Of a stretch of DNA of 38,884 nucleotides, positions 1,379 through 38,884 are shown in pieces; positions within the stretch are counted from its first letter, which is position 1, and each line of letters opens with the position of its first letter. The DNA comes from a virus. Lineage: Duplodnaviria; Caudoviricetes. Made by a program: the position numbers and the translations under genes. The stretch is from positions 1 through 38,884 of the IMG/VR virus record IMGVR_UViG_3300005238_000001. One strand, given 5' to 3'. Below the pieces are notes generated by a model that saw nothing but the letters and a program-made list of their open reading frames with translations, searched no databases and was not told the origin of the DNA.

Positions 1379-1759
1379 CTAGCCGGCCGCAAACTCCCAT
1401 TGGTCTGGTAGGGGCTGCTCTTCGTATTCCTGAGCATCCTGGGCGGCCAGAGCGGCCTTCAGAGCCCGGTTCTCGCTCCGGTAGGTCGCGAGCTGAGACT
1501 GGTGAAACTGAGCCGCCAAAACGGAGCCTGGAGTCGATAGCCAGTTCTCCGGCGAGCACAGTTCGCCGCGGTCGTTGATCCTCCAGCCGGCCCAATCGGG
1601 ATGGAAACAGCCGAGGTCCCGTCTGAGTAGCGCGGTAGCTGTATAAGGCAGGCAATATGCCCCGCGCTTCCAGCGTCGAGCTGTCGCAGGATCGACCTTG
1701 CAAATCCGCACTATGTCCTTGACGGATAAGCCCCAAAGATCGTTTTCGACCTTCGCCAT
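1379..1759 (-). CDS. HTH + DUF3653 protein, XafT/VC1465-like Xer recombination activation factor
   Basis: N-terminal HTH (LSVKDIVRICKVDPATARRWKRG), then DLGCFHPDWAGWRINDRGELCSPENWLSTPGSV (WxGW...G.L.SP motif of DUF3653) and a coiled coil; adjacent to the dif-like site. Confidence 0.8.
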   Translation of the reverse strand: MAKVENDLWGLSVKDIVRICKVDPATARRWKRGAYCLPYTATALLRRDLGCFHPDWAGWRINDRGELCSPENWLSTPGSVLAAQFHQSQLATYRSENRALKAALAAQDAQEYEEQPLPDQWEFAAG

Positions 1760-1782
1760 TGACCCACGGTAGCACCTTGCGA

Positions 1783-1810
1783 GGTGCATATAATGTATAT
1801 AAGGGAAATA
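1783..1810 (+). other. dif-like Xer recombination site, putative attP
   Basis: GGTGCATATAA-TGTATA-TAAGGGAAATA versus E. coli dif GGTGCGCATAA-TGTATA-TTATGTTAAAT: XerC arm 9/11, spacer 6/6, XerD arm 5/11; AT-rich intergenic position. Confidence 0.8.
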
Positions 1811-1841: not shown

Positions 1842-2099
1842 TTACTCGTGTATTTTAGAGTTGTTGGATTGTAAATCGCCATCTCTCAAAGCGCGATGCA
1901 GAGAGGGGCGGGCAAAATGCCTGCGGTGCTCAGGTACCTTTTCAGGGCCGAATTTCAGCCTCATTTCAGCCAGCGCCCGGTGAGCGGTGGCGATGGAGCA
2001 GTTGAAATACGTGGCGCATTCGGCGATCGACATGCCCACCTCGCGGAACTGGCGCATCTCGAACTTCTCAACGGCCTTCAGGTTTTTCTCGCGTCTCAT
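1842..2099 (-). CDS. Small HTH DNA-binding protein
   Basis: GMSIAECATYFNCSIATAHRAL HTH; GGAGG RBS upstream of ATG 2099. Confidence 0.7.
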   Translation of the reverse strand: MRREKNLKAVEKFEMRQFREVGMSIAECATYFNCSIATAHRALAEMRLKFGPEKVPEHRRHFARPSLHRALRDGDLQSNNSKIHE

Positions 2100-2439: not shown

Positions 2440-2519
2440 GGCTCAATGCTAGGCCAACAAACTTCTGAAAGGCATATACATCATGCGAACTTTCGCGGTG
2501 ATTCATTTGCGGAACATCC

Positions 2520-5172: not shown

Positions 5173-5517
5173 TCAGGTCCGTGACTTGGTCAAACCCTGA
5201 TCGGGCGCTGAGGCCTGGAGCTCGAGCAACAATTTGACTGCGGTGCGGCGGTCGGCTGTGGCGTTGCGGTAAGCCTCTATAAGGGCAGACTCTTCGTCTG
5301 AGGGGTGTATATGGTCCATCCAGCCCTTCTCCAGCTTGTAGTTTTTCTCTACATCGCGAGCCACCTCTGGGCCGATCTGCTTGGTACCCCGAAGCCATCG
5401 GTTCACCAGATTAGGCTCGATTCCCAAAGCCCGTCCCATGGCCGATTGATTGCCTTCGTGGCGTTGAGCACAGAGTTGCTGCAGGTTTTTCCTGCGAGTG
5501 GAATAGACATCCTCCAT
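5173..5517 (-). CDS. cI: CI-like phage repressor (HTH, no S24 peptidase domain)
   Basis: RRKNLQQL...NQSAMGRALGIEPNLVNRWLRG...IG...ARDVE...GWMD; divergent from cro. Confidence 0.85.
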   Translation of the reverse strand: MEDVYSTRRKNLQQLCAQRHEGNQSAMGRALGIEPNLVNRWLRGTKQIGPEVARDVEKNYKLEKGWMDHIHPSDEESALIEAYRNATADRRTAVKLLLELQASAPDQGLTKSRT

Positions 5518-5534
5518 CCCTAAAGCGTGGATGT

Positions 5535-5604
5535 TATTACCATTTAGCGAAATGAGCGATCTGGTAACAGCTGCTTGCGGCGCTATTACCACGGTGGTTA
5601 TACT
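5535..5604 (+). promoter_or_regulatory. OR operators and rightward promoter PR
   Basis: TATTACCA-CGG-TGGTTATA (5584-5602), half-sites TATTACCA (5535) and TGGTAACA (5562); TTGCGG-18-TATACT (5575-5604). Confidence 0.7.
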
Positions 5605-5611
5605 ACCGGAC

Positions 5612-5830
5612 ATGGATCTTCGAAAGTTCCTCGACGCAATGAAACCGGCCGAGCGGCGTGAATTTGCTGCCCGATGTGGGACGACCGCCAATTACCTGGC
5701 GCAACTGCACTACGGCATCAAGCCGCCTGGACCTGCCATGGCCAAAATGCTGCACGAGCAAAGTGGCCGTCGCATCCCTCTTGAATCGTTACGCCCTGAT
5801 ATTTGGGGCCAGTCGTCCGCTCGCAATTAG
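5612..5830 (+). CDS. cro: Cro/YdaS-like HTH regulator
   Basis: RREFAARCGTTANYLAQL...LESLRPDIW motif; divergent from the repressor. Confidence 0.88.
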   Translation: MDLRKFLDAMKPAERREFAARCGTTANYLAQLHYGIKPPGPAMAKMLHEQSGRRIPLESLRPDIWGQSSARN

Positions 5831-6345: not shown

Positions 6346-6660
6346 CTCGTTGATGCTGTTACGGCGCATCGCCGGTATGCCACTTCGGTGAGCAGTATCA
6401 ACGAGTTTCGATCGGTTGCCAAGGCCGTCGGGCCGGAAAGGTACGAGTGCGTCACGTCACGACACGTGAACTGTCGATGGAACTAGGTCGCTAGGCGCCA
6501 AAGGCTGAATACCGGGCTCTGATGTCGCCACTTGCATCCCGGACCCGTAAGGGGAAGGACGAGTACCCCCAGCGAGAGCTGGTCAGGTTCGCTGAACGAG
6601 CAACTAACAGGCTCGGGATACGAACCGGAGGGGGAAAGTGGCCTCGCTTTGGGAAAACAC

Positions 6661-6888
6661 GTGTCGGAATGCAAGTTTTGCGGAGTGAAAGTTCAGTGGA
6701 TCAACCGGATACCTTACGAAGGCGGGTTCGACCACCGGGAGATTTGTCCCGGAATGAATCGTCGTTCGCAGGAACGAGTTCGGGACGTGAATCACGAGGA
6801 GCGGGTTCGGCAGTTTCTAGCAACACACGCAAACAACACGGCAACTCAGAGGCTGCGAAAGCCTCCGGGTGGTGGGCCACGAGGTTGA
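6661..6888 (+). CDS. Small zinc-finger protein
   Basis: GTG start, ECKFCG...W...HREIC. Confidence 0.6.
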   Translation: MSECKFCGVKVQWINRIPYEGGFDHREICPGMNRRSQERVRDVNHEERVRQFLATHANNTATQRLRKPPGGGPRG

Positions 6889-6901
6889 GCAGGGTCTGCA
6901 T

Positions 6902-7027
6902 ATGAGTCAGCCAGCAAAATACGTGCCTTTGTTCCGCTTGAGGCGCAAGTGTACGCGCTGTGGTGCCTGGAAACATGTCAGAGGCTCCCAGACGCTCCCG
7001 GTCTTTGTCTGTGGTGATTGCCTATGA
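6902..7027 (+). CDS. Small zinc-finger protein (41 aa)
   Basis: Hand-translated MSQPAKYVPLFRLRRKCTRCGAWKHVRGSQTLPVFVCGDCL; CxxC..CxxC; ATGA coupling to the next gene. Confidence 0.6.
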   Translation: MSQPAKYVPLFRLRRKCTRCGAWKHVRGSQTLPVFVCGDCL

Positions 7028-7377
7028 GTCGGGAGATTCCCTACCACCCCATGGGTCAAAAGACCTCCACGACTACCCCCGAGCAGATGTTCGCCAAGCT
7101 CGAAGCTCGCAACGTTGAAATCCGAAAGAAAGCAGGGCAGTCGGCGCAGCCGAAAGCCTTCGCCCAAATGGACCGCGAGATGCTGCTTGCCACCAGACTC
7201 AAGCAACACGGTATCCGCGACATGTTCGACGGGCTGACGACCACCGAGCAGCGCCGGGACAACATGCGCAAGGCGATCCTGGAGAACGCGCTGAGCGAGG
7301 TGTTTGCGGGGAAGCGGGGAGGGCAACCGATTCAATTCGCTGGGCTGTTCGAATTGACCTACGGGGAACCGCTGTAA
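7024..7377 (+). CDS. Hypothetical protein
   Basis: Helical ORF coupled at both ends, phage-like codon use. Confidence 0.75.
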   Translation: MSREIPYHPMGQKTSTTTPEQMFAKLEARNVEIRKKAGQSAQPKAFAQMDREMLLATRLKQHGIRDMFDGLTTTEQRRDNMRKAILENALSEVFAGKRGGQPIQFAGLFELTYGEPL

Positions 7378-7502
7378 TGTGGCTCACAAAAGCTGAGTTT
7401 CGTGAAGTCGCTCGCATCTGCTGCCCGAGCATGACCTTGCGTCAGTTCAACATCGCCTGGGCAGAGTGGAAACTCATGAGGGGTTCTCATGGCCGACCAT
7501 GA
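7377..7502 (+). CDS. Hypothetical protein (41 aa, MWLTKAEFREVARICC...)
   Basis: TAATG coupling to the previous gene. Confidence 0.55.
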   Translation: MWLTKAEFREVARICCPSMTLRQFNIAWAEWKLMRGSHGRP

Positions 7503-7668: not shown

Positions 7669-8048
7669 TCACCCTCGACCTGCCCATGGCGGTTCCTTCC
7701 CTCAATGCCATGAACAAAATGCATTGGGCCAAGCGCAACCGACTCCGCGGGCAGTGGCAATGGCTGGTGAAGGCGGCCGTGCTGAATGATCGAATCCGCG
7801 TTCGGGTGATTCCCGTGGCAAAAATAACCATCGAACGGTATGGCCCCAAGAAACTCGACAATGATAACTTTGTAGGCGGAGCTAAACAGCTCGTTGACTC
7901 CCTCGTGCGCGAGGGTTTTCTCGTGGATGACAGTCCAGATCATCTGGTAGCGCAGTACATCCAGCACATCTCCAAGACCGCACGAACGATCGTGCATATC
8001 GAGGATGTACATGGCGCTTGCTCTCAGATCCCTGCACGATCTCCCTAG
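7665..8048 (+). CDS. rusA: RusA-like Holliday junction resolvase
   Basis: VPSLN...HW...LDNDNFVGGAKQLVDSL...LVDDS catalytic pattern. Confidence 0.85.
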   Translation: MITLDLPMAVPSLNAMNKMHWAKRNRLRGQWQWLVKAAVLNDRIRVRVIPVAKITIERYGPKKLDNDNFVGGAKQLVDSLVREGFLVDDSPDHLVAQYIQHISKTARTIVHIEDVHGACSQIPARSP

Positions 8049-9522
8049 CCTCACGGGCAACATCGACCGACGCTATCCGAACGGGGATGCGCCGGTCATC
8101 CAACCCGCAACGCTCGGCATCAACCTCGCGGCCTACAACGCCGCGAACTTCGTGCTCACCAACTTCAATGCCGGCGGGGTCGGAGTCGATTTCAATTACC
8201 GCCAGTTCCTGACCGGCACCAGTGCTGCGACCGCTACGATCTCCGTAAGTGCCGCCTCCGGATTCCTGGGAGGATGGAAAGTCGATGCCAGCGGCAACGG
8301 CATTTCCAACGACCTCACCATATCCGGCTCTGGAAGCCTCTTCGTATCCGCAAGCGATGGTGTCAATCCCCCGGTCAGTTTCCCTGTTCAGCTCTGGTCG
8401 GTACTGTCCTCTACCCAGCAGTCACAGATCAAACTCGTCACCGGCAACGGCTTCTGGCTGGACAATCAGTTCTGGACCGGCAGCAGCGGTGCTCCCGCGC
8501 AGGAGCAGAGCAACTTCAACTCGCTGTTTCCGACCTTCTCGGCCAATCCGCTGATCAAGTATTTCTTCATGGAATATACCTGGGGTGCGGGCGAGCAGAT
8601 CCGAGGGAATTATTCCAAGGCATTTGCCGATATCGATGCGGTGCTCGCAAAGCTCGCGACGGCCAGCACTCCGACCGGACTGATCCTCTCGTTGTGGATC
8701 GAGTTTTTCAACACCACGAATGCCACCAATATTGGTCAGTGGCCGCAGTATGTCATCAACAACGGTTGGATCTATCCGACCATCTCAAACGGGGTTGGGC
8801 GGCTGCAGTTGAAGTGGGATATCGATGATGTCTGGGCGGCATTTGGGGATTTCTGCGCGGCGATCTGCAACCGCTACAACAATCATCCCCTGTTCTACGG
8901 CTTCTGTCCCATGGATGAGACCGACATGGTTACCCAGGTGGACAATGTTACCCAGCCGGCAGGAAGTGGGCTTTCACCCAATCAGGTGATCTTAAACGCC
9001 TCGCATTACGTGACTCAGTTGAAGAACCTGTGTCTGCGATTGCTCGGCGCACTTCCCAACACCCCGCTGTACATCCCGCTCAACTATCTGCCGCCCGGTG
9101 GGAGTACTGAAGCGCCCAACATGGCCAACCTGATCAACGCCATCGAAGCGCAATACCCCAAGCATGCGATCTACGGTGGCCCCGATCCATTCGTGCGCCA
9201 AACCACGTTCCAGAAACTGGTCGCGGGTGCCTACCAGGCCACCACGGGGATGGGGGATATCCGCAAGAACATCCTCCTGATGAATCGGATTCAAGGGGCC
9301 TATCTCGGCAACCGCAATGATTCGAGCGGCAATCCGATCAATCCGGGTGTCACGCCCGGACAGATCTATGACAACGCGGTCACCACCAACAACTGCGTGA
9401 TGCTGACGTGGAACTGGGAAACCTACATGTACTACAAGGCAGCGGATGAATTGGCGGCGATCACGGCACGTAATGGAGCGGTAGGCACACCCCCCTCGGG
9501 TGGCAACTACCAGATCATCTGA
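8011..9522 (+). CDS. Putative clan GH-A (GH42/GH5-like) TIM-barrel glycoside hydrolase with N-terminal beta domain
   Basis: YTWGAGEQIRGNY...IDAVL...LILSL...WPQYV...ICNRYNNHPLFYGFCPMDET; GAGGA RBS. Confidence 0.65.
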   Translation: MALALRSLHDLPSLTGNIDRRYPNGDAPVIQPATLGINLAAYNAANFVLTNFNAGGVGVDFNYRQFLTGTSAATATISVSAASGFLGGWKVDASGNGISNDLTISGSGSLFVSASDGVNPPVSFPVQLWSVLSSTQQSQIKLVTGNGFWLDNQFWTGSSGAPAQEQSNFNSLFPTFSANPLIKYFFMEYTWGAGEQIRGNYSKAFADIDAVLAKLATASTPTGLILSLWIEFFNTTNATNIGQWPQYVINNGWIYPTISNGVGRLQLKWDIDDVWAAFGDFCAAICNRYNNHPLFYGFCPMDETDMVTQVDNVTQPAGSGLSPNQVILNASHYVTQLKNLCLRLLGALPNTPLYIPLNYLPPGGSTEAPNMANLINAIEAQYPKHAIYGGPDPFVRQTTFQKLVAGAYQATTGMGDIRKNILLMNRIQGAYLGNRNDSSGNPINPGVTPGQIYDNAVTTNNCVMLTWNWETYMYYKAADELAAITARNGAVGTPPSGGNYQII

Positions 9523-12245
9523 TGCCGCGTAACTTCTCAGGCTCCAGTCAGCTCATGTCCGGGGCCGGAAGCCCCTTCAGCAACTCCGGTCCCGGGGCGC
9601 TTCTGATCTGGCGCCGTACCGCTACCGTGGCCCAGCAGGACTGTCGCTACATGCAGCTCATCGTGAGCGGCCAGGTCCGTATCGAGCTCGGAACGGACGT
9701 GACAGGTACGAGCGGCAAAACCTGCGCGCTGCAGCAGAATGCGAGCACCAATACCCAGGCGCTCTCGGCTGTCGCGCAGACGGCCAACGTGTGGCAGCTC
9801 GACGTGGGTGCTTTCGGCAGCTATCCCAACAACCAGATCGTCTATTTGGCGGGTGGTAACAAGAACACGAAAGCGGCCATCTCAAATCCCGGCACCACGA
9901 CCACCGTTCAGATTGGCGGCCGGGGTACCCAGGATCTCGCGCATGCGGCGATCATGACGCGCCTGCCCACGGATCTCGAGGTGGCTGCCGTAGCTGCCTT
10001 GGTCAATCCTCAAGCCTTGGGGCTCTCCAACTACTGGTACGTCAATCAGTCAGCGACCGAGCCGGACAAGGTGGGCAGCATCAATCTCACTGTCACCGGC
10101 ACCACCGCTGCTTCGGGTGATCCGAACATCGGGACGTGGTTCATCGGCACGGCCATTGCGAACCAGACATGGACGCAAGGCACTCCGATCACGACCATCG
10201 ATCTCACGACGAAGTTTGACAACGGCGTGGCATCTACAGCCCCCTGGACGGGCACGCTGAAGCAATTAGGGGCTGCAGGAACTGCCACCGCAGCCACGGC
10301 TTCCGGTACCAGTTCAACCGCCCTGACGACCTCTGCGGCGCTCACAGCAGGGCAGTGGGTGCAGGTGGGCAGTAATGCGCTCACGCCCGTTCTGTACGTA
10401 TCGGGTAACACCGCACTGCTGCGAGATTCACTCACCTGGAACAACGCAGATACCGTCACGCCCTATCCGGTCGTGGCATTGACTGCCATCACGAGCAACG
10501 GCGTCACTGTGAACGGGTCCAACGTGACCACCGGCACGCCCGGTGCGGGAGCGGTGGGAACCTATACCAACTGCCTATTCCAGGCGACGAACAACGCCAA
10601 CACCGCGGCAATCGCCTATTCGAACCTCTTCACCATCACGGTGGCATCTTCCGGGGCCGCGCCGTCGTTCTCGGCGGGTCCCACACTGACCACCGCCAAC
10701 ACGGATGGATACAGCTTTGGAGCCACCAGCAATCAGACCGCGACCTGGTACGCCATCGCACTGCTGCGGGGATCTCCGACGCCCACCGGCGCTCAAGTAA
10801 AGTCCGGCTCACCCACCGGCTTTGTGGCGCGCGTCTCGACGGCCCTCACGGCATCGGTCGCCGGCTCACTGAGCTTCACCGGGCTAACCTTCCCGTTTTA
10901 TGACCTGTATCACGTGGTCGATAACGGTTCGGGCACTTCGGCCGTGCAATCCTTCACGGCCCTGTTTAAAACACCGCCTGCCGGCAAGCAGTACATCACT
11001 GCCTCGCTCCTGAGCATCTCGGCCATCAGCAAAAGCAACCCGGTCCAGATCACCTTCAGTGGCGCTCACGGCCGCACGACAGGCGATTGGACGGAAGTGT
11101 TTGGTGTGGGCGGGATGACGCAGTTGAACGGTGCATGGGGTCCGTGCGTGGCCGTAGACAGCACACATCTAACCATCCCCGGGGTGGACTCCACCGGTTA
11201 CTCCACTTTCACCAGCGGAGGCACAGTAACTTGGGGTCGATCGAGTTTTGCGGGCTCCTCCACCAACGTGGTGAGTGGCGACATCCTCATTGCGGATGCC
11301 ACGGACGGGCAGGGCAATGCGGTGACGTTCACGGCAGAAGGGGTTGCGATCTTCGCCACCAATTCCACGGCACGTCAGAGCTTTGTGAAGGATGTCTACA
11401 GCGTTTCCTTGGGTAACTTCATCGGTTCGGCCACCGAGTACGAAAACGATGTCCCGCCGATTCCGCCTGGCGCGACCACGCAGTTACCCTTTGCGCTCTT
11501 TCCACTGAATCAGGCCACGAGCGCACCGATCGCTGCACTGTTCGATGATCCCCAAGGGGATGATCTGACCAACGGCATCACTGCACTCACGCCATTGCCG
11601 CCCAACCGATCCATTGTCGCGGGTGTGCTCACCGGCATTGCCACCTCCACGGCCATTACGCAGGTGACATTCCAAGCGCAGAACAAGAGCGGTGAGAGCT
11701 CGACGTTCACCATGAACATCGTGGATGGGGGTGTCCTGGTCCCCGATGGCAAGAACAAGAACCAAAATGATGTGCAGGCCATCGCGGACGCCAACTACCT
11801 GATTGCTCAATTTGGCACCCAGGACGACGCCACTCCGGGCGGTCCTGCACCTCAGGGAACCATCATCGGGCAAACCCCACCGGCCAATACCCTGGTGAAT
11901 CCGGGGACACTCGTGATCTTCGTGGTGTCCTCCGGTAATGCGCCGGTGATCCAAGTGGTTGTGCCGGATGTCAGCTCGAGTCCCACGGATCAAGCCACCG
12001 CAACGGCGGCCTTGGTCGCAGCCGGATTCACGCCCAACGTGCCTCAGCCCTGGACCGGTGTACAGAAGATCACTCAGGTTCCCCCTGCAGGCACGTTGCT
12101 GATCAACGGCTCGGTGGTGAGTCTCTTCCTCATGGGTGCGGGACCAGTCCCACGACGACACACACACCGAAAACGCGTGTTTCCCACCCAGAAACCTCCT
12201 CAGCCCAAAATCCTGATCAAAACCCCCGGGAAGAACAGGCGATGA
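9522..12245 (+). CDS. Large multidomain beta-rich protein (LamG-like, Ig-like, FCCH-like, two C-terminal PASTA domains)
   Basis: Thr/Gly/Ala rich; ISAISKSNPVQITF..HG..GD...GVGGMTQLNG; two VPD...Q.P.AG/ANT.V..G..V.L repeats. Confidence 0.7.
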   Translation: MPRNFSGSSQLMSGAGSPFSNSGPGALLIWRRTATVAQQDCRYMQLIVSGQVRIELGTDVTGTSGKTCALQQNASTNTQALSAVAQTANVWQLDVGAFGSYPNNQIVYLAGGNKNTKAAISNPGTTTTVQIGGRGTQDLAHAAIMTRLPTDLEVAAVAALVNPQALGLSNYWYVNQSATEPDKVGSINLTVTGTTAASGDPNIGTWFIGTAIANQTWTQGTPITTIDLTTKFDNGVASTAPWTGTLKQLGAAGTATAATASGTSSTALTTSAALTAGQWVQVGSNALTPVLYVSGNTALLRDSLTWNNADTVTPYPVVALTAITSNGVTVNGSNVTTGTPGAGAVGTYTNCLFQATNNANTAAIAYSNLFTITVASSGAAPSFSAGPTLTTANTDGYSFGATSNQTATWYAIALLRGSPTPTGAQVKSGSPTGFVARVSTALTASVAGSLSFTGLTFPFYDLYHVVDNGSGTSAVQSFTALFKTPPAGKQYITASLLSISAISKSNPVQITFSGAHGRTTGDWTEVFGVGGMTQLNGAWGPCVAVDSTHLTIPGVDSTGYSTFTSGGTVTWGRSSFAGSSTNVVSGDILIADATDGQGNAVTFTAEGVAIFATNSTARQSFVKDVYSVSLGNFIGSATEYENDVPPIPPGATTQLPFALFPLNQATSAPIAALFDDPQGDDLTNGITALTPLPPNRSIVAGVLTGIATSTAITQVTFQAQNKSGESSTFTMNIVDGGVLVPDGKNKNQNDVQAIADANYLIAQFGTQDDATPGGPAPQGTIIGQTPPANTLVNPGTLVIFVVSSGNAPVIQVVVPDVSSSPTDQATATAALVAAGFTPNVPQPWTGVQKITQVPPAGTLLINGSVVSLFLMGAGPVPRRHTHRKRVFPTQKPPQPKILIKTPGKNRR

Positions 12246-12634
12246 ATGCAGTGATGAAGACAGAGATTGACGGTCGCACCACGCAAATGGACTCGAGGTT
12301 GAAGGCGACCGACGCGCTGGCAGATCGCTGGGCTCGCTCTCGTTACGAAGGGGGCACCTTGCATCCGCTGGCGGCTATCCAGCTGCTACACGATGGAGCC
12401 GTGCTCGGCGGGGGCTGCGGACAGATGTCGGATGATGTTCTCGCGTTCGATCAGGTATATGCGAAAGCCCCCCGGCACGAGAAGGCGGTGATTCACGTGT
12501 GGTATTGCCTGGGAGGTTCAGCCGCCCAGAAAGCCAAACGCCTGGGCATTGGCCGCACAACCCTCTACCTCGAGTGGAAGGTCGCGTTGCAATACATGAA
12601 GACCGAACTTCGATTGCGTCACATTGATGTCTGA
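12242..12634 (+). CDS. Q: Antiterminator Q-like late regulator
   Basis: RWAR...VWYC...QKAKRLGIGRTTLY HTH; directly followed by a promoter and terminator ahead of the late genes. Confidence 0.75.
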   Translation: MNAVMKTEIDGRTTQMDSRLKATDALADRWARSRYEGGTLHPLAAIQLLHDGAVLGGGCGQMSDDVLAFDQVYAKAPRHEKAVIHVWYCLGGSAAQKAKRLGIGRTTLYLEWKVALQYMKTELRLRHIDV

Positions 12635-12639
12635 AACCA

Positions 12640-12668
12640 TTGACTTTTGAGAACGTCCGTACAATATT
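12640..12668 (+). promoter_or_regulatory. Late promoter pR'-like
   Basis: TTGACT (12640-12645) with AATATT at 17 bp spacing (TACAAT overlapping), right after Q. Confidence 0.55.
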
Positions 12669-12705
12669 CCACGCCATCGTGGGAATGCCACGCACCAACA
12701 TATAG

Positions 12706-12728
12706 ACCCCGCCTCGAGCGGGGTTTTT
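12706..12728 (+). terminator. Intrinsic terminator tR'-like
   Basis: ACCCCGC-CTCGA-GCGGGGT-TTTT. Confidence 0.85.
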
Positions 12729-12748
12729 CATTTTAGGAATCCCCAATC

Positions 12749-14011
12749 TTGTTGATGGTCGCTCCCACCGGTGGTGATTCATTCACCGGGGTGTCCGGCT
12801 TTGTCTATTCAGCCGGCAGTGGGGCTCAACTGGAGATTGGCGGCAGCGATGTGCGCCGCGCGTTGCAGCGCAATTGGGTGGAAATTCCCTATCCAGTGCC
12901 GCCGACCGTGGCGCAACTGCCGATTCCATCCCAGACTCGAATTGGTGTTGAGTACTACACCTCCGACCAAGGGGTGGTGGTCAATACAGGGACCGCATGG
13001 GTCCCGGTCGGAAGCGGCGGAGGCGGACTCACGCCGATTGCCTCGGGGACGATCCTCGGCAATTCGAGTGGGATATCGGCCATCCCCACCGCGCAAACGG
13101 CATTGCCCTCGGGTGTCACCACCGCCGCCGGCGGACAGATATTCGGTTCGACCGACACCCAGACCCTCACCAACAAAACGGTGGATGGTGGCTCGAACAC
13201 GCTGACCAACCTGCCTGCCTCACAGCTCGTCGGTTCAATCAGCGTGACGGCGATTACCGGGAATTGGGGAATTGCCAATGGAGGGACCGGGGTTTCCACT
13301 TTGTCGGGCGTGTTGCTCGGCAATGGAACGAGCCCGATCAGCTCGGCGGCCGGAACGGATATCTCAGCGCTCTTTACGGGCGGCGCGGCCACCAGTGCGT
13401 ATTACCTCGCGGCTGACGGCACTCGGCAGATCGCCGCAGGCGGAGGCGCTGGCGGTGCAAACACTCAGGTTCAGTTCAATAATAGCGGGGTTTTCGCAGG
13501 CGATAGCGGGTTTACCTACGCAGGCTCAGGCGCTGCCACCCTAACCGCTAGTCTCACGGTTCCTACCATCACGGCCGCGACCCGGGTGAGCGCGGGTCGA
13601 ATCGATGTCACATCGACCACCACCGCAACGAACGGATTTGCTCTGCCGACGGGAAACACCCCGACGGCCTATTCCAACGGCGCGGCGCGCTTTCAATGGA
13701 CTTCGAGCGGCATCACGCTTCTCGCTGGCAACTTCGTGGCTGGAACGATCGGCCAGGGGTTGCAGGTCAAGGAAGGCACCAACGCCAAGATGGGCGTGGC
13801 TACTCTCGTGGCTGGCACAGTCACAGTCAGCAATACCGCTGTGACTGCGAACTCCCGCATCTATCTCACCTGCCAGTCACTCGGCACGGTGTCAGCGCCA
13901 TCGGCGCTGTGTATCTCGGCCCGCACCGCGGGAACCTCGTTCACTATTCTCGCCAGTCAGAACACGGATACCAGCGTCATCGCTTGGCAGATTGTGGAGC
14001 CCGCGCCCTAA
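12749..14011 (+). CDS. Fibre-like virion protein
   Basis: TDTQTLTNKT, IANGGTG and GGANTQVQFNNSGVFAGD motifs typical of phage fibres; start uncertain (TTG 12749 or ATG 12755). Confidence 0.75.
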   Translation: MLMVAPTGGDSFTGVSGFVYSAGSGAQLEIGGSDVRRALQRNWVEIPYPVPPTVAQLPIPSQTRIGVEYYTSDQGVVVNTGTAWVPVGSGGGGLTPIASGTILGNSSGISAIPTAQTALPSGVTTAAGGQIFGSTDTQTLTNKTVDGGSNTLTNLPASQLVGSISVTAITGNWGIANGGTGVSTLSGVLLGNGTSPISSAAGTDISALFTGGAATSAYYLAADGTRQIAAGGGAGGANTQVQFNNSGVFAGDSGFTYAGSGAATLTASLTVPTITAATRVSAGRIDVTSTTTATNGFALPTGNTPTAYSNGAARFQWTSSGITLLAGNFVAGTIGQGLQVKEGTNAKMGVATLVAGTVTVSNTAVTANSRIYLTCQSLGTVSAPSALCISARTAGTSFTILASQNTDTSVIAWQIVEPAP

Positions 14012-15351
14012 TGGTCACACTGACGCTCGGTCCGGCGAATCCTGCCAAGGCCTACGTGGTTCCCTCGTTCGCCAACAGCTTCACGGACAATCTTGCAGCC
14101 CTCAACATGGGCTTGATTGCGGACTATCAGTTCGGCACTGCAGCGAGTGGAAGCTCACCCGTCATTCCCATTCGCAACATCACGGATCTTGCAACGTACT
14201 TCAACCCGCAGGCGGACGCCTCAGGCACCAGTGTTCAGGTATCTGCGATCGAGCGCTATCAGTCGTTCAACACGACCAATCACGCCTTTGCATCCGACCA
14301 TTTGTCACTGACTGCAGCCCTCGAGGCAGGCGGGTCAGCGGATGTGCTGCAGCTCACCACGAGCGCATCGACGACCAGCAGCGCAGTCCTGACGTTCACC
14401 AGCACGACTGGTGTGCAAGACGGGCAGATCGTCGCCATCTTCGGTCAGTTTGCCGCGAATGTATGCCGCGTCAGTTCCCACGATTCGACCACGGTCACGC
14501 TCAACCAAGCGGTGAGTGGAACTGTCAATACAGGGACCACGATCTACTTCCTGAATGCCTTCGTATGTTCCGGGGCAGTCGCAGGGAGCGGAACGACGGT
14601 GAGCTATGCCTCGGTCCCAAGCGGGATCCAAGCCGGGATGTATTACAACAACATCACGACGGGCACCTTCGGCACTCGGCGTGTTGTCAGTAAAACTGCG
14701 ACGACCATCACATTCGATGGCTCCGTGAGTCAGGCGACCAGTGATTTTGTGATCCTGTCACCGCCGATCACGAGCGGGCAGATGTGGACCAAGGCGGGCT
14801 ATCAGCCGGGCAAGAACGGCGCGAACTTCATCGCGATTGAGATCACCTGCCAGATCCCCGGCAACACCAAGCAGGGCGCATGGCCGGCGGATTGGGTGTA
14901 CTCGCGCACGAGCGAAGGTTTCCCGATCGATGCCTCCGAGCTCGACAACTTCGAGTTCAATATCAGTGGCAGCGCCAATGCCTCAGCGTGGTCGGGAAAC
15001 AACCACGGCGGCCTGTATGAGCGCCAGGAGTACGCCAAGCTCGTCGGCGTGCATTCGAGCTATTGGGATGCGTTCGGCTTCTTCCGTCCCTCAGGGGCCC
15101 CGGACTACTCAGCCACTACGCACAAATATCAAATCCTGTGGACACCGGATCGCAGCTACCGATTCGTGGATGGCGTGTTGTTCACCTGCTACGTCATGCC
15201 CTGGGGCTCCGGCTGTACGGGACAATTGGGCACCAACTTGGGTTGTGGGAGCTTCATTGCGACCTATCTCAGCTCGCTCCTGTTCCCACTGACCAGTGCG
15301 CAATTCCCCTATTCGTTCGACATCTACGAAAAGAAGATCTGGCAGGGCTGA
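14011..15351 (+). CDS. GH16-like (ConA fold) glycoside hydrolase domain protein
   Basis: SG.M.TK...GAWPADW...ELDNFE (ExDxxE)...HKYQILWTPD..RFVDG; TAATG coupling places the start at 14011. Confidence 0.8.
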   Translation: MVTLTLGPANPAKAYVVPSFANSFTDNLAALNMGLIADYQFGTAASGSSPVIPIRNITDLATYFNPQADASGTSVQVSAIERYQSFNTTNHAFASDHLSLTAALEAGGSADVLQLTTSASTTSSAVLTFTSTTGVQDGQIVAIFGQFAANVCRVSSHDSTTVTLNQAVSGTVNTGTTIYFLNAFVCSGAVAGSGTTVSYASVPSGIQAGMYYNNITTGTFGTRRVVSKTATTITFDGSVSQATSDFVILSPPITSGQMWTKAGYQPGKNGANFIAIEITCQIPGNTKQGAWPADWVYSRTSEGFPIDASELDNFEFNISGSANASAWSGNNHGGLYERQEYAKLVGVHSSYWDAFGFFRPSGAPDYSATTHKYQILWTPDRSYRFVDGVLFTCYVMPWGSGCTGQLGTNLGCGSFIATYLSSLLFPLTSAQFPYSFDIYEKKIWQG

Positions 15352-15886: not shown

Positions 15887-16285
15887 ATGGGATTTCAGAA
15901 AGGAAACAAGCTCTCGGGCAGTCGCAAAGGATCGCCCAACAAGTCCACCAAGACGCTCAAAGAGGCGATCGCTTATGTCCTGGATCACAGTCAGGACCAG
16001 TGCCTGGACTGGCTACAGAGCGTTGCAGAGGGCGAGAAAGAGTTCGAGGCTGAGCTGGATGACGATGGCAATCCCGTGCTGGATGCCGAAGGAAATCCGA
16101 AAGGGACATGGGAGTGGTTGCGCCGGCCAGAGCCTGCCGCAGCATTCAAGCTTTGGCAGGATCTCGCGGAGTTCGCCGCTCCCAAACTCGCACGCACTGA
16201 GCTGACAGGCGAGGGCGGGGGAGCGGTGAAAGTGGAAGGCAAGGTCGAATTTGTCGTCAGTCCGGTTCCACGCACAGTTTCCTGA
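15887..16285 (+). CDS. terS: Terminase small subunit
   Basis: FQKGN...RKGSPNK.T...APKLARTELTGEGGGAV; directly upstream of terL. Confidence 0.8.
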   Translation: MGFQKGNKLSGSRKGSPNKSTKTLKEAIAYVLDHSQDQCLDWLQSVAEGEKEFEAELDDDGNPVLDAEGNPKGTWEWLRRPEPAAAFKLWQDLAEFAAPKLARTELTGEGGGAVKVEGKVEFVVSPVPRTVS

Positions 16286-17522
16286 GAAGGCCGCGCCGCT
16301 CTTCCAGAAGAGCCGCTACAAGGACATTCGGGGTGGGCGTGGATCGGCCAAATCATGGTCAGTGGCCCGCGCACTGCTGATCAAAGGTTCGACTGAGCCC
16401 TTACGCATCCTCTGTACTCGCGAAGTGCAGCAGTCCATCCGTGATTCAGTTCACAAACTGCTCTCGGATCAGATCCAGGGATTGGGCTTGGGCAGCATCT
16501 ATGACGTGGACCTTCGAGGCATCCACGGCAAGTGCGGGACCGAGTTCATGTTCGCGGGCTTGAGTGATCAAACCGCGGAGTCACTGAAGTCCTACGAAGG
16601 CGTGGACATTGTGTGGTTGGAGGAAGCACAGGTTCTGTCCAAACGCTCCTGGACGATCCTGATTCCCACCATCCGCAAAGATGGCTCTGAGATCTGGGCG
16701 ACTTGGAATCCCGAGCTGGACACGGATGAGACCTACGTTCGGTTGGTGGAGAAGCCACCGCAGGATGTGATCCACATCGAGCTCAACTGGCGTGACAACC
16801 CCTGGTTCAACGCCACGCTCGAACAGGAACGCCAGCACGCGAAGGACACGCTGCCCGATGATGAATACCAGAACATCTGGGAAGGCAAATGCCGCAAGGC
16901 GGTCTCGGGTGCGATCTACGCCGAGGAAGTGATTGCGCTGCATGCCGAGCATCGCATCGGGGACTATCCCTGCGATCCGCATGCGCTGGTGTATCCGGTA
17001 TTCGACCTGGGCTGGAATGACCAGATGTCCATCATCCTGGTTCAGCGCAATGTCAGTCAGATGCGGGTGATCGACTACATCGAGAACGATCACAAGACGC
17101 TCGACTGGTACTCACAGGAACTGAGGAAGCGTCCCTACAACTGGGGCAAGGTCTTTCTGCCGCACGACGGTGGACACGGTGACTACAAGACCGGTCGCAG
17201 CGCCAAGGAGATCATGGAAGATCTGAAGTGGGAGGTGGAAGTTCTCCCCGCCATGAATGTGAATGAAGGCATCCGCGCCACACGCATGATGCTGAAGCAG
17301 ACATTCATCGACCGGACGAAGTGTGAGCGGTTGCTCGAATGTCTGAAGCGCTATCGACGCTCCATTCCGAGCACGACACAGGAGCCTGCTGGACCCTTGC
17401 ATGATCAGTATTCCCATGGAGCGGATGCCATGCGGTATGTGGCGATGGCCGCCCCACAGATGGACAACGAGCTATCCATGCAGTTACCGCCGCTGAAGTA
17501 CGGCAACTCGGGTGTGTTGTGA
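16251..17522 (+). CDS. terL: Terminase large subunit (PBSX family)
   Basis: GGRGSAKS Walker A, REVQQSIRDS, WLEEAQ Walker B, FDLG and HGADAMRY nuclease motifs. Confidence 0.97.
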   Translation: MSSVRFHAQFPEKAAPLFQKSRYKDIRGGRGSAKSWSVARALLIKGSTEPLRILCTREVQQSIRDSVHKLLSDQIQGLGLGSIYDVDLRGIHGKCGTEFMFAGLSDQTAESLKSYEGVDIVWLEEAQVLSKRSWTILIPTIRKDGSEIWATWNPELDTDETYVRLVEKPPQDVIHIELNWRDNPWFNATLEQERQHAKDTLPDDEYQNIWEGKCRKAVSGAIYAEEVIALHAEHRIGDYPCDPHALVYPVFDLGWNDQMSIILVQRNVSQMRVIDYIENDHKTLDWYSQELRKRPYNWGKVFLPHDGGHGDYKTGRSAKEIMEDLKWEVEVLPAMNVNEGIRATRMMLKQTFIDRTKCERLLECLKRYRRSIPSTTQEPAGPLHDQYSHGADAMRYVAMAAPQMDNELSMQLPPLKYGNSGVL

Positions 17523-17731
17523 AGACATCTGACCTCGCAAAACCACCTATCCAGCCACACGAGATCACGGGCGCTCAGGACTCACTGTGTCGCAACCACA
17601 AAGGTTCAATCGCCCACGAGCGTGAAGGTTCCGTGTGGTATTGCCCGATGGGACGCATGTTCTGGCGCTACTCGACCCAACGATCTGATTTCAACCGACC
17701 GCTTCCCTACAAGCGGTCTGGAGTTTTGTGA
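17519..17731 (+). CDS. Hypothetical protein with a TerL-like C-terminal tail
   Basis: GTGA coupling; CxxH..C; ends in PLPYKRSGVL. Confidence 0.6.
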   Translation: MKTSDLAKPPIQPHEITGAQDSLCRNHKGSIAHEREGSVWYCPMGRMFWRYSTQRSDFNRPLPYKRSGVL

Positions 17732-17740
17732 TTGGCTGAC

Positions 17741-17884
17741 ATGGCATTGATCAACGAGCTGAACGCCATCAAGGAACGCTTGAACAACATCGAACAGCAC
17801 CGGGATGCTCGTATCAAGGTTTTAGAGGACGCGCACGATCAACTGCTGCGCCGCATCGAACAGTTGGAGCGCAGGAAGAAGTGA
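17741..17884 (+). CDS. Small coiled-coil protein (47 aa, MALINELNAIKERL...)
   Basis: Hand-translated; heptad pattern; GTGA overlap with the portal start. Confidence 0.65.
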   Translation: MALINELNAIKERLNNIEQHRDARIKVLEDAHDQLLRRIEQLERRKK

Positions 17885-20157
17885 GCGAAGAAGCCGTCCG
17901 CAAGCCTGAGAAGATGACGGAAGCGGACCTGCTCAACATCATCCGCGCGTACGAGAAAGCCTCGCTGGGCTCGGATGTCGCCTCGGGTGGCTCCGTTTCC
18001 AGCGTCATCACGTCTGCAAGTCAGACCATGACCACGCTCGAGGTGGACCGCTACAACGCGCTCAACTGCTACATGGCGCGTCCGCTCGGTAACGAGATCG
18101 AGAACCGCTCCCAGGTGGTACTGCCGGAACTGGCCGACACGGTGGATTGGATCATGCCGCAGTTGATGCGCATGTTCGCCGCGGCCAAAGCCATTTGCCG
18201 GTTTGAGCCGGAAGGCCCCACGGACGTGGACCAGGCGCAGATCGAGTCCGAAGTCGTCAACCACATCTTCATGAAGGGCAACAACGGCTTCTTCATCCTG
18301 TACGACTATTTCTGGGACGCCATGGTCATGCGTAACGGCTACGCGTCCGTGGACTGGGTGGAGGAGACGGTTCCGGCTCTGGAGCGCTATTCGGGGCTCA
18401 CAGAGGATGAGCTGGCCGAGGTGATGGAGAAGCGCTCGGAAGATGAGGAGATCGAAGTCCTCGAGCAGCGCGAGTATCCGATGTCCGAAGCCCTGCAGAA
18501 GCACATGCAGAGCCTGATGCCACCGCAGCAGCCCGGACAGTTACCCCAACAGGCGCCTCAGTTGCCCGCGCCGGCCATGAACCTGTTCGACATCAAGCTC
18601 AGGCGCACGACCAATGCGGGCCGGGTGAAGGTGCAATGCATTCCGCCGGAAGAGATGCGCGTCTCATCGCGTGTGACGGGCAACCTCGAAGATTCTCCCT
18701 TCAGCGCACAGATCACGCAGGTCCCGCGCTCTGATTTGGTCGCGGACGGCTACGACAAGGCCGAGATCTACTCCCTCACCAGTGGCAAGCCCAACTGGTT
18801 CGAGATGGATGCGCTCGCGCGTAACTCCGTCGTCGATCAGCTCTCCATCGAGAACCCCGGCGATCGGGCGATGCAGGAGATCGAGGTCCGACGAGTATCC
18901 ATCCGCGTGGACTTCGATGGCGATGGCATTGCGGAATTGCGGCGGGTGGTGGTGGCTGGAGATGCCATCCTCGAAAACGAGGAGATTGAGGAGACGCCGT
19001 ATACGTCGTGTGTGCCTAAGCGCATGCCGCACCGGCATACCGGCATCAGTCTCTACGACACGCTCGCAGATCTGCAGGTGATCAAGACGCAGTTGTTTCG
19101 GGCGGGACTCGACAACCTGGCACTGGCCAACAACACCCGCACGGCGGTCGATTGGCAGAACTGCAACCTCGATGACCTGATGACTTCGCGTCCGGGTGGT
19201 GTGGTGCGCGGTAAAGGCCCTCCGGGAAACTGGATTGCCCCTCTCGCGCAGCCCTCGAACATTGTCGAGCAGGTGATTCCCGCCATGGAATACACCGACC
19301 GGTTGCGTGAGATGCGTACCGGTGTGGGCCGGGACACCATGGGATTGGATGCGGACGCGCTGCAGGATGTGACCAAGGGCGGTCAGTTGGCTGCCATGTC
19401 AGCAGCCTCACTCAAGATTGAGCTGATTGCGCGGCTGTTGGCGGAAGGGGTGAAGGACATCTTCACCAAGATCCACAACTGCATCCTGCGTCACCAGGAT
19501 GGAGAGCTCGAATTCGAGATCGCCGGGCGGTGGATCAAAACCGATCCCACCGCGTGGAGACGGCGCACGAAGGTCTCACCGAATGTGGGATTGGGTTCGG
19601 GCAACCGGGAAGAAGCGCGCGCCAACCTGCAGTTGCTCTCGAACATGCAGCAGAACCTCGCCAACTTCGGTCTCGTGGGGCCGAAGCAGATGTACGAGAC
19701 GTTCAAACGCGGCTGTGAGGTGCTGGGGTTTGAGAATCCGCAGGTCTTTGCGATGGACCCGTCCAGCCCCGAATACGCAGCCCATCAGAAGCAGATGGCG
19801 CAGAACCCGCCACCTCCACCGCCTCAGGTGCAGGCCGCTCAGATCAGGAATCAGGGGCTACAGGCGCAAGAGAATGCCAAGACCCAACGCGAACTGCTCA
19901 CGGCCAAAGTGGATCTCGTCAAGGCACAGACGGCTGCGGTAGCCGATCACGCCAAAGCGGATCGGGAGATGGCGCACGAGACGATGCAGAACGCGCACGA
20001 CCGGGAAATCGACATCGCCGAGCACAACAGCCAGATGGCCCAGACGCTCATCAAGGTGCTGGGCCAGATCATCGCCAGCCAGTTGAAGCAGAACGCTCAG
20101 GCCGATGCCGGCAAGGTACTCGAGCACGACTATGCGGAAGTGAGGGGCCTGCAATGA
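17881..20157 (+). CDS. Portal protein (P22/SU10-like)
   Basis: ENRSQVV...DTVDWIMPQLMRMF...DFDGDGIAELRRV...PHRHTGIS; Gln-rich C-terminal barrel. Confidence 0.93.
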   Translation: MSEEAVRKPEKMTEADLLNIIRAYEKASLGSDVASGGSVSSVITSASQTMTTLEVDRYNALNCYMARPLGNEIENRSQVVLPELADTVDWIMPQLMRMFAAAKAICRFEPEGPTDVDQAQIESEVVNHIFMKGNNGFFILYDYFWDAMVMRNGYASVDWVEETVPALERYSGLTEDELAEVMEKRSEDEEIEVLEQREYPMSEALQKHMQSLMPPQQPGQLPQQAPQLPAPAMNLFDIKLRRTTNAGRVKVQCIPPEEMRVSSRVTGNLEDSPFSAQITQVPRSDLVADGYDKAEIYSLTSGKPNWFEMDALARNSVVDQLSIENPGDRAMQEIEVRRVSIRVDFDGDGIAELRRVVVAGDAILENEEIEETPYTSCVPKRMPHRHTGISLYDTLADLQVIKTQLFRAGLDNLALANNTRTAVDWQNCNLDDLMTSRPGGVVRGKGPPGNWIAPLAQPSNIVEQVIPAMEYTDRLREMRTGVGRDTMGLDADALQDVTKGGQLAAMSAASLKIELIARLLAEGVKDIFTKIHNCILRHQDGELEFEIAGRWIKTDPTAWRRRTKVSPNVGLGSGNREEARANLQLLSNMQQNLANFGLVGPKQMYETFKRGCEVLGFENPQVFAMDPSSPEYAAHQKQMAQNPPPPPPQVQAAQIRNQGLQAQENAKTQRELLTAKVDLVKAQTAAVADHAKADREMAHETMQNAHDREIDIAEHNSQMAQTLIKVLGQIIASQLKQNAQADAGKVLEHDYAEVRGLQ

Positions 20158-20459
20158 CCGACTTCACACCGAAAACGCCCGAGCAGGAAGTCATCCGAGC
20201 AGGTCAAGCACGCCAGATTGTCGAATCCCCCTTGTGGATCGAAGCCTGTCAGCGCATCGAAGCGGGATTGGCTGCTCAACGCCGCGCAGTCCCGATGCGT
20301 GAGACCGAGATGCACACCCGGCTGATCATCGCCGAGCAGCTGTGGAGTCAGTTCACCGACTTCTTCACCGAAGTCATGGATTCCGGCCGCATGGCTGAAT
20401 TCCAGATCCAACAGAAACGATCGCGGCTGCAAGACGCCGTGAACCTCTTCCGGAGATAA
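20154..20459 (+). CDS. Conserved small head-region protein
   Basis: Helical 101 aa ORF between portal and scaffold. Confidence 0.75.
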   Translation: MTDFTPKTPEQEVIRAGQARQIVESPLWIEACQRIEAGLAAQRRAVPMRETEMHTRLIIAEQLWSQFTDFFTEVMDSGRMAEFQIQQKRSRLQDAVNLFRR

Positions 20460-20462
20460 CCC

Positions 20463-21590
20463 TTGTCAGCGAGCCCCGAGAGCGTGACGCAGAGCACGCA
20501 GACCTCTAGTACTGCCCAAACCACGACCACCAATGCACCGGTGGAGCGAACGATCACTCAGGAGAGTGACTTCGACCGACTGTGGAACAAGGGCGCATTT
20601 GATTCTCCCGAGGAAGCCAAGGCCCGGGCGGAGGCGAACAAGAAGCCTGAGAAGCCGGTGAAAGCCGCGCCTGTTGTTGAAGAGCAGGCTGCTGAGACAA
20701 CCGAGCAGGCGCCCGCTGAGGAATCTGAAACCGAGGAGCAGCCTGAACAACAGGCCGAGACGCAGGAGAAAACCTACGAGTCGCTCTCGGACTATCTGAA
20801 AGACGCCAACATTGACGAGGAAGGCTTTCTCGACCTGCCGGCCACCGTCAAGGTCAATGGCAAGACCGATACCGTCCCACTGCGTGAAGCGATCAGCAGC
20901 TACCAGCAACAGCAGGTCCACACGCAGAAATCGATGGCGCTGGCGGATGACCGCCGCAGCTTTGAGGAGCAGCGCACGCAGGTCTCCCAGGCCCTGGCCC
21001 AGCAGATCGAGCAGACCAAGCAGCTCCTGCAATACGCCGAAACCCAGGCGTTGGGCGAATACAAGTCGATCGACTGGAATGCGCTCAACCAGACCGATCC
21101 CGCCCGCTATGCGGCGCTGAAGATCGACTACGACCAGAAGGTAGCGAACATCCGTTCGTACCTCGCACAGATTGATCAGACTCAGAAGGAACAGGCGAAG
21201 CAAGCCCAAGAGGCCCAGGCCAAACGCCTGCCTGAAGAGACTGAGAAGTTGTTGTCCGCGATTCCAGAGTGGCGCGACGACAAGAAGAGGACGGCTGATC
21301 AGAAGGCCATCCTCGAATACGGGAAATCCCGCGGGCTCTCCGATGCGGAGCTCACGATCACCGATCACCGCTACGTGCAGATCCTGCATGACGCGGCCCG
21401 GTATCGCGCTCTGCAAGCCGCCAAACCCCAAGCACTCAAACAGGTTCGCGCCGCGCCTCAGATGGTGAAGCCCGGCGCTCGTGTGAGCCGCGATCCGAAA
21501 GCGGCCTCACTCCAACAGGCACGTGAGAACTGGGCTCGTAACCCGCGCGATGAAGACGCGCAGGCGGCCGTGTTCTCGCAATTCGTTTAG
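20463..21590 (+). CDS. Capsid scaffolding protein
   Basis: Acidic N-terminus, VKVNGK...YQQ..HTQKSMALA, IDWNAL..TDP; upstream of the capsid gene. Confidence 0.88.
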   Translation: MSASPESVTQSTQTSSTAQTTTTNAPVERTITQESDFDRLWNKGAFDSPEEAKARAEANKKPEKPVKAAPVVEEQAAETTEQAPAEESETEEQPEQQAETQEKTYESLSDYLKDANIDEEGFLDLPATVKVNGKTDTVPLREAISSYQQQQVHTQKSMALADDRRSFEEQRTQVSQALAQQIEQTKQLLQYAETQALGEYKSIDWNALNQTDPARYAALKIDYDQKVANIRSYLAQIDQTQKEQAKQAQEAQAKRLPEETEKLLSAIPEWRDDKKRTADQKAILEYGKSRGLSDAELTITDHRYVQILHDAARYRALQAAKPQALKQVRAAPQMVKPGARVSRDPKAASLQQARENWARNPRDEDAQAAVFSQFV

Positions 21591-21599
21591 GAGACACCC

Positions 21600-38842: not shown

Positions 38843-38884
38843 GATTCCCTCCGCTTGACTCAGTCATGGTTTAACTCTGGCTCT

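Follow-up and report, generated by a model that had tools for sequence, protein, structure and literature searches.

The window, that is the whole stretch of 38,884 nucleotides that was analysed, is an entire IMG/VR-type virus record of a soil tailed phage, classed as linear (CheckV 100%). Terminase, portal and HK97-type capsid genes (PF04466, PF23899 and PF17236) place it in the Caudoviricetes, and the genome is an SU10-type podovirus without detectable integrase. ERF/NinB recombination genes are also present. Furthermore, large genes precede the terminase at 8005-15351 on the plus strand. They show PASTA, E1_FCCH, K1-lyase C-terminal and weak GH16 matches and likely encode a tail spike/depolymerase, in an unusual position. 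In the likely source run, one contig stops at base 1 of the window, whose right end forks into contigs of 641 and 481 bp with depths of 17 and 15. The fork (38855-38884) likely marks a two-allele variable region between the lysis genes and the end of the left operon. We infer that these two contigs close the circle; if they do, the unseen part (up to ~600 bp) is too short for a usual integrase. The features on which the analysis centres are the following.

1379-1759, minus strand: XafT/XafV-like predicted Xer activation factor of 126 aa, assigned from a VC1465_fam match, hhalign and a model
1766-1774, minus strand: predicted extended -10 element (TG-n-TACCGT), 6 nt ahead of the ATG
1783-1793, plus strand: the dif-like site's XerC arm, of a type also seen in chromosomal dif sites of bacterial loci
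1794-1799, plus strand: central 6-bp overlap region, TGTATA
1800-1810, plus strand: degenerate XerD arm (5/11), with T1 and G5 kept
1827-1840: proximal 14-bp palindromic box of the TTGCGA-NN-TCGCAA type, its centre 23 bp beyond the XerD arm
1842-2099, minus strand: resolvase-type HTH protein of 85 aa with a three-helix model, a candidate box-binding directionality factor or activator
1876-1889: distal box, 49 bp from the proximal one and inside the 3' end of the HTH gene
2464-2491, minus strand: second dif-like site, inverted, with a 10/11 XerC arm, an intact spacer and a XerD arm lacking G5
about 5173-5830: divergent cI-like and cro-like HTH genes (PHROGs regulator/repressor matches)
16251-22550, plus strand: terminase large subunit, SU10-type portal, scaffold and major capsid genes (PF04466, PF23899, PF17236; PHROGs)

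A sequence-only reading of this DNA had proposed a tailed phage that integrates through host XerCD. The 28-bp site that it placed 23 bp from the gene start is borne out by the sequence, as is the cI/cro switch at about 5173-5830. Beyond its account lie three conserved parts, namely an HTH gene upstream, a pair of boxes and a predicted promoter.

The site GGTGCATATAA-TGTATA-TAAGGGAAATA occupies 1783-1810 and lies 23 bp from the ATG (1757-1759) of the open reading frame 1379-1759 on the minus strand. With two mismatches at most, the pattern of XerC arm and spacer matches twice in the window, compared with 0.00 times in 100 shuffles. The second match (2475-2491, minus strand) falls in the inverted site, which is possibly a relic of a Xer-mediated cassette event; no second dif-like site was found in the 25 viral loci. 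T5orf172 and HTH genes sit between the weak XerD arms of the two sites (1783-1810 and inverted 2464-2491). Downstream of the activator gene, the minus strand at 633-1168 holds a gene with a LexA-type DNA-binding domain and an orphan HigA-like antitoxin.

For the study of conservation, 25 viral and 80 metagenome loci were collected. Together with the window this gives 106 loci, 88 of them distinct and 87 with upstream DNA. The site is conserved beside homologues of the gene, as the sequence-only reading would predict: both occur together in 78 of the 87 distinct loci, 73 of them at a distance of 22-25 bp. The window-type arrangement (22-24 bp) accounts for 63 loci, and nine show a flipped arrangement at 24-25 bp in which a good XerD arm faces the gene and the XerC arm is weak. 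A full dif is found in one locus, the site lies further off in five, and nine have no site within 150 bp of the gene. The flipped loci (L002, L003, L021, L048, L049, L065, L067, L068 and L112) have different recognition helices and no boxes, and integrated small elements of the same layout occur at L370-L372, L374 and L383. This class may use another Xer pathway.

Forty-two representatives below 80% protein identity were compared; they share common ancestry and their counts are not independent. Among them the XerC arm is near-invariant, 32 have TGTATA as overlap region, and the XerD arm has degenerated apart from G5. According to the accessible text on 190,528 attP variants (PMC9226527), XafT accepts almost any XerD arm in which position 1 or 5 is kept, and C5 is the worst choice. 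The XerD arms of the present sites obey this experimental TLC rule, since G5 is found in 38/42 and T1 or G5 in 39/42, with C5 in 0/42. In the window, T1 and G5 are both kept. G5 retention is the best independent sign of XerD action at these sites, though the representatives share ancestry. The site is of the TLC type, with a XerC arm, a 6-bp overlap and a degenerate XerD arm in a genome with no detectable integrase.

The protein beside the site has a predicted architecture of an N-terminal HTH, a DUF3653 hairpin and a long C-terminal helix (model pLDDT 91.5). Its only NCBIfam match is VC1465_fam (NF040522; E 1.7e-9, residues 5-105), at 37.7 bits against a curated cut-off of 70 bits, and all 23 of 23 relatives match the same model (best E 3.6e-13). 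The Pfam DUF3653 model (PF12375) gives E 0.026 and 15.1 bits, under its gathering cut-off of 22.4 bits. It is detected at E up to 1 in 34 of 38 close homologs (best 1.8e-7), and nine of 39 homologs carry a precomputed DUF3653 domain. Within the window protein, HTH matches at residues 10-32 and DUF3653 at 53-98 are both weak. The NCBIfam VC1465 model and VGJ ORF136 (XafV) served as stand-ins for a pairwise comparison with XafT, as the pTLC record has no ORF matching the family profile; hhalign of this profile against ORF136 yields P 95.6 and E 1.2e-8. The weak domain matches, the VC1465 model match and the alignment to XafV together describe an HTH fused to DUF3653. The earlier label of an HTH+DUF3653-like gene holds as family resemblance and fails as a call at either curated cut-off. 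Because the VC1465 score stays under its cut-off while hhalign matches XafV, we treat the 126-aa protein as a distant XafT/XafV homolog and not as a formal member. In the accessible part of the VGJ study, ORF136 raises attP integration 10,000-fold (10.64898/2026.06.12.731946).

Tblastn of the 126-aa protein against 50,697 annotated phage records gave no match, and a peptide scan of bacterial genomes returned no relative. A fold search recovered no solved relative and two uncharacterised proteins of uncultured tailed phages at E under 0.001. A complex predicted for the protein and the catalytic region of a XerD taken from the likely host order scored 0.00, which speaks neither way. A second link of the activator family to Xer comes from three loci without site, in which the activator-like gene overlaps a XerC-class recombinase gene (TIGR02224, 326-341 bits), with a remnant in a fourth. 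At these places (L106:2618-3526, L107:3026-4293, L110:2273-3184 and L111 before 3931) the overlap is with the stop of an element-borne recombinase, and no dif-like site lies within 150 bp. L107 additionally bears a HigBA pair. These four could be a separate type of element with its own XerC and activator.

On the other side of the site, 71 of 74 loci have an HTH homolog that terminates just ahead of the weak arm, as do 47/47 representatives with 500 bp of upstream DNA. The HTH_7 resolvase family is matched by 20 of the 47 members (best E 1.2e-10), and fold searches with the 85-aa protein retrieve only generic HTH folds. This gene is the last one of the early-left operon. A search starting from it yielded 12 viral loci. 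One of these module variants (L503:5232-5330) keeps the HTH gene, boxes, site and promoter, and another gene replaces the activator; at L101, before 666, the HTH frame enters the site and the boxes are gone.

In 33 of 42 representatives, boxes are present no more than 120 bp from the weak arm; shuffles give 1.3 and a control region 3/40, as scored with a matrix trained on the very sequences scored. Their centres cluster at about -12/-61 or -22/-72, and the spacing is 48-50 bp in all 18 of 18 pairs. The distal box falls into differing reading frames of the HTH gene (13, 10 and 1 of 24), which argues that the constraint acts on the DNA. A subgroup with another HTH recognition helix and the same activator helix has different box motifs, and the flipped class has no boxes. 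Since the boxes vary with the HTH helix and not with that of the activator, and since the flipped class is box-free, the 85-aa HTH protein is favoured as the box binder. Binding by the activator's own HTH was considered and is disfavoured, as an identical recognition helix accompanies different boxes.

The XerC side carries a predicted promoter. A TAnnnT motif lies 6-7 nt ahead of the start codon in 34 of 49 representatives (shuffles: mean 1.3, maximum 6), and GGAG/GAGG/AGGA Shine-Dalgarno motifs ahead of the activator gene are absent from all 74 loci. A strict sigma-70 consensus scan of this region found nothing. With TAnnnT at 6-7 nt and the Shine-Dalgarno motif missing, the activator transcript is likely leaderless and would start from a promoter that abuts the XerC arm. 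Relative to the activator start codon, the box centres lie at -61 to -64 or -73 to -75.

The window record showed no match to PF00589 (tyrosine recombinase), PF00239 (resolvase), PF07508 (large serine recombinase) or PF00665 (DDE integrase), in agreement with the sequence-only reading. Four relatives that are complete by terminal repeats are without every recombinase family tested. Among 26 virus records, PF00589 is matched in one (G014, whose own 280-aa tyrosine recombinase is encoded in the early operon) and PF00239 in one (G011). PF07508, PF00665 and the partition ATPase ParA (PF13614), the last being expected of a plasmid-prophage, are matched in 0/5 records, namely the window and the four with terminal repeats. 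A module-bearing relative (L014:942-1784 and 6504-7445) has a 280-aa tyrosine recombinase and a transposase-like gene, presumably IS1595-like, near the site.

Terminase matches were obtained in 17 of the 26 records. The module occurs with SU10-, P22- and GP7-type heads; for the four terminal-repeat records, 72 of the larger ORFs were scanned. P22-type and GP7-type heads are both represented in those four, which brings the head types that have the module to at least three. In a related complete phage, a large late-region gene has a GGDEF domain match (L034:11094-13004).

Evidence on integration comes from one contig and from bacterial genomes. In L079, a 47%-identical homolog and a fully canonical dif are separated by 23 bp, there is neither HTH gene nor boxes, and the nucleotide sequence resembles that of phage relatives only from a point inside the site onwards. 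This contig of only 1,351 bp is predicted, from its sequence, to be an integrated (attR-type) junction. It may also belong to another element, given that it extends just 118 bp upstream and that its next downstream gene is unmatched in phage loci.

Distant homologs are found in 20 of 301 bacterial genomes of one gammaproteobacterial order, the likely host order. A full dif-like site lies within 1.5 kb in 15 of the 20 top bacterial loci, with XerC arms of the types seen in the phage sites, and both ends of elements of 1.1-3.5 kb are visible in seven loci, in either orientation. Neither a terminase nor the HTH gene is found near the 20 homologs, and the small dif-integrated elements lack both the HTH gene and the boxes. 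Minimal elements of 0.9-3.5 kb with dif-derived ends and a XafT-like gene occur in uncultured gammaproteobacteria at L372, L374, L375, L377, L380, L398, L401 and L516.

Close family members were not found in overlapping samples of 301, 401, 267 and 251 bacterial genomes, and the HTH profile detected nothing in 401 genomes, in a scan without positive control. A DNA-pattern scan of bacterial genomes was discarded as too loose (120 chance loci from 4/64 parts, 0 matching the family profile). Among viral contigs, the pattern of a full dif plus start codon retrieved 66 loci, and in no case does a close homolog begin at the start codon concerned. All phage-type loci, and the likely source run, show the unrecombined site. 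The search for dif-bounded prophages that the sequence-only reading called for has produced one attR-type junction and small dif elements, and no whole tailed prophage bounded by dif-derived attL/attR in the bacterial genomes sampled.

With no detectable integrase and a half-degenerate copy of dif, the site at which bacterial chromosomes are unlinked, beside an activator relative, the phage likely enters the chromosome via host XerC/XerD. We put the probability at about 0.78 that the locus serves Xer integration of the TLC type and has a directionality device added to it, and hold it equally probable that XerD, activated in the XafT manner, inserts the circular genome at dif. The sequences themselves show the site anatomy, its conservation, the homology of the proteins and the absence of detectable recombinases, and from these we infer integration, XerD activation, box binding and directionality. 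The proposal of a TLC-type module in place of an integrase is supported to this extent, and a whole dif-bounded tailed prophage was not found for it in the bacterial genomes sampled.

After infection, the XafT-like protein would be expressed from the circular genome and activate XerD independently of FtsK. Recombination of attP with dif would then follow the XerD-first pathway, and the weak XerD arm would protect the prophage against excision by FtsK. The module would come apart on integration: the HTH gene and the boxes would come to lie at the weak-arm end, and the activator gene with its promoter at the restored-dif end. In lambda, xis sits where the early-left operon ends. By analogy, the 85-aa HTH protein, whose gene closes the early-left operon here, would be made on induction and likely binds the boxes and sets the direction. 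It might do so by building an excision synapse beside the weak arm. Alternatively, it might activate the promoter only in the circular form, in which the boxes lie upstream. G014, with its own tyrosine recombinase, and L503, without activator, are exceptions to this scheme.

A more far-reaching version, which we offer tentatively and rate somewhat below even odds, is that tailed temperate phages of several head lineages swapped int/xis for a host-recombinase module with its own switch. A stand-alone resolvase-type HTH protein on two helically phased boxes by the weak XerD arm would choose integration or excision by host XerCD, and integration would part the activator promoter from the boxes. 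In that case the phage would be the first tailed-phage IMEX, with the first directionality factor for a XafT-type reaction.

The same parts could also serve a cer/psi-like multimer-resolution site, where host XerCD, the activator and HTH-bound boxes would resolve phage-genome dimers during replication or in a plasmid-like prophage, with no chromosomal integration. Boxes phased 49 bp apart do resemble the accessory sequences that impose resolution on plasmids, as described in the accessible text of PMC9226527, and the consistently unrecombined phage-type loci, together with the lack of an integrated tailed prophage in the sampled genomes, would suit such a role. It accords poorly with the L079 junction, with the distant homologs integrated at dif and with the absence of ParA from 5/5 records. 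In addition, XafT-type factors work between separate molecules according to the accessible part of PMC6744903, and plasmid sites follow a XerC-first pathway without an activator of the XafT family. We consider multimer resolution unlikely.

Still less probable is that the gene is an HTH transcription regulator, the role ascribed to PM2 P15, or has a PSB15-like packaging role, with the dif-like sequence kept only as promoter/operator and perhaps repressed by bound XerC. The fixed 23-bp spacing, the -10 element adjoining the XerC arm and the activator-like distances of the boxes would fit a promoter, and PSB15 is dispensable for integration in the accessible text (10.1101/2024.03.19.585677). Against this stands that the XerC arm is conserved over its full length, along with the spacer and, in the XerD arm, G5 selectively. 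Nine flipped loci keep a good XerD arm instead at equal spacing, the activator family is coupled to XerC-class genes, and a phage with a cI/cro switch would be left without a lysogeny route. A relic of a small dif-integrating element, no longer used by a phage that is lytic or has an undetected recombinase, is the most improbable reading. Small elements with homologs do often occupy dif in genomes of the likely host order, and the genome may lack about 600 bp. Against a relic, reading frames and spacing are intact over dozens of divergent phages with three head types, and the small elements are without HTH gene and boxes.

Integration by host XerCD through a TLC-type module remains our preferred reading. 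Integrase-free tailed phages are routinely labelled lytic; if this reading holds, a widespread soil phage group is temperate via dif and overlooked by prophage finders. The candidate regulator, the candidate boxes and dozens of natural variants make regulation of the XafT reaction testable in E. coli, and, if confirmed, a module of two genes by which host XerCD becomes a switchable integrase would be a useful tool.

In the part of the literature covered, no tailed phage using XerCD and no tailed IMEX was found. Integration of tailed prophages in Vibrio is credited to their own integrases in the accessible text of PMC11630473, and the DUF3653 list of PMC6744903, as far as accessible, may hide unrecognised tailed prophages. 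Precedents among dsDNA phages for a XafT-like gene with a dif-like attP do exist in tailless phages (accessible text of PMC12715192). They were missing from the Xer-exploiting elements named in the sequence-only reading. These dif-type double jelly-roll prophages of Vibrio, including the P15/P16 module and NO16, are likewise lysis-capable dsDNA phages with a repressor in which the XafT-like gene and dif-like attP replace an integrase; they are small and tailless, and the accessible portions of PMC12715192 and PMC9966536 mention neither a separate HTH gene nor accessory boxes.

VGJphi XafV/ORF136 is homologous over HTH and DUF3653, and its gene adjoins attP as here (10.64898/2026.06.12.731946, accessible part). 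VGJphi differs in being filamentous, and its XafV acts on XerC-initiated reactions, whereas the window site is TLC-like; the flipped class may be the XafV counterpart. PSB15 of Xanthomonas filamentous phages shares DUF3653 with its WxGW/F and xPE motifs but, in the accessible text, is not fused to an HTH, attaches to the packaging signal of the ssDNA and can be lost without effect on integration (10.1101/2024.03.19.585677). A PSB15-like packaging role is implausible here, since the phage is terminase-packaged.

Plasmid cer and psi employ host accessory proteins for XerC-first resolution. They likewise combine a Xer core site with flanking protein-binding DNA (PMC9226527, accessible text), whereas in the present module the phage itself encodes the candidate accessory protein, and it is a weak XerD arm that the boxes adjoin.

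The closest known system is the TLCphi satellite of Vibrio cholerae with XafT/VC1465. In the accessible parts of PMC6744903 and PMC9226527, it likewise has a dsDNA dif-like attP with an intact XerC arm and a degenerate XerD arm keeping position 1 or 5, an HTH+DUF3653 gene on the XerC side and no integrase. The similarity of the window protein to XafT stays under the VC1465 cut-off. TLCphi is a small rolling-circle satellite that, as far as these texts describe, needs no flanking DNA and has no known directionality factor, which leaves the boxes unexplained by the TLC model; the XafT reaction is called intrinsically reversible, and its regulation was left open, in the accessible text of PMC6744903. 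The present phage, in contrast, is a self-sufficient 39-kb podovirus with further parts, namely an HTH gene, two boxes flanking the site on its XerD side and a promoter predicted to be leaderless.
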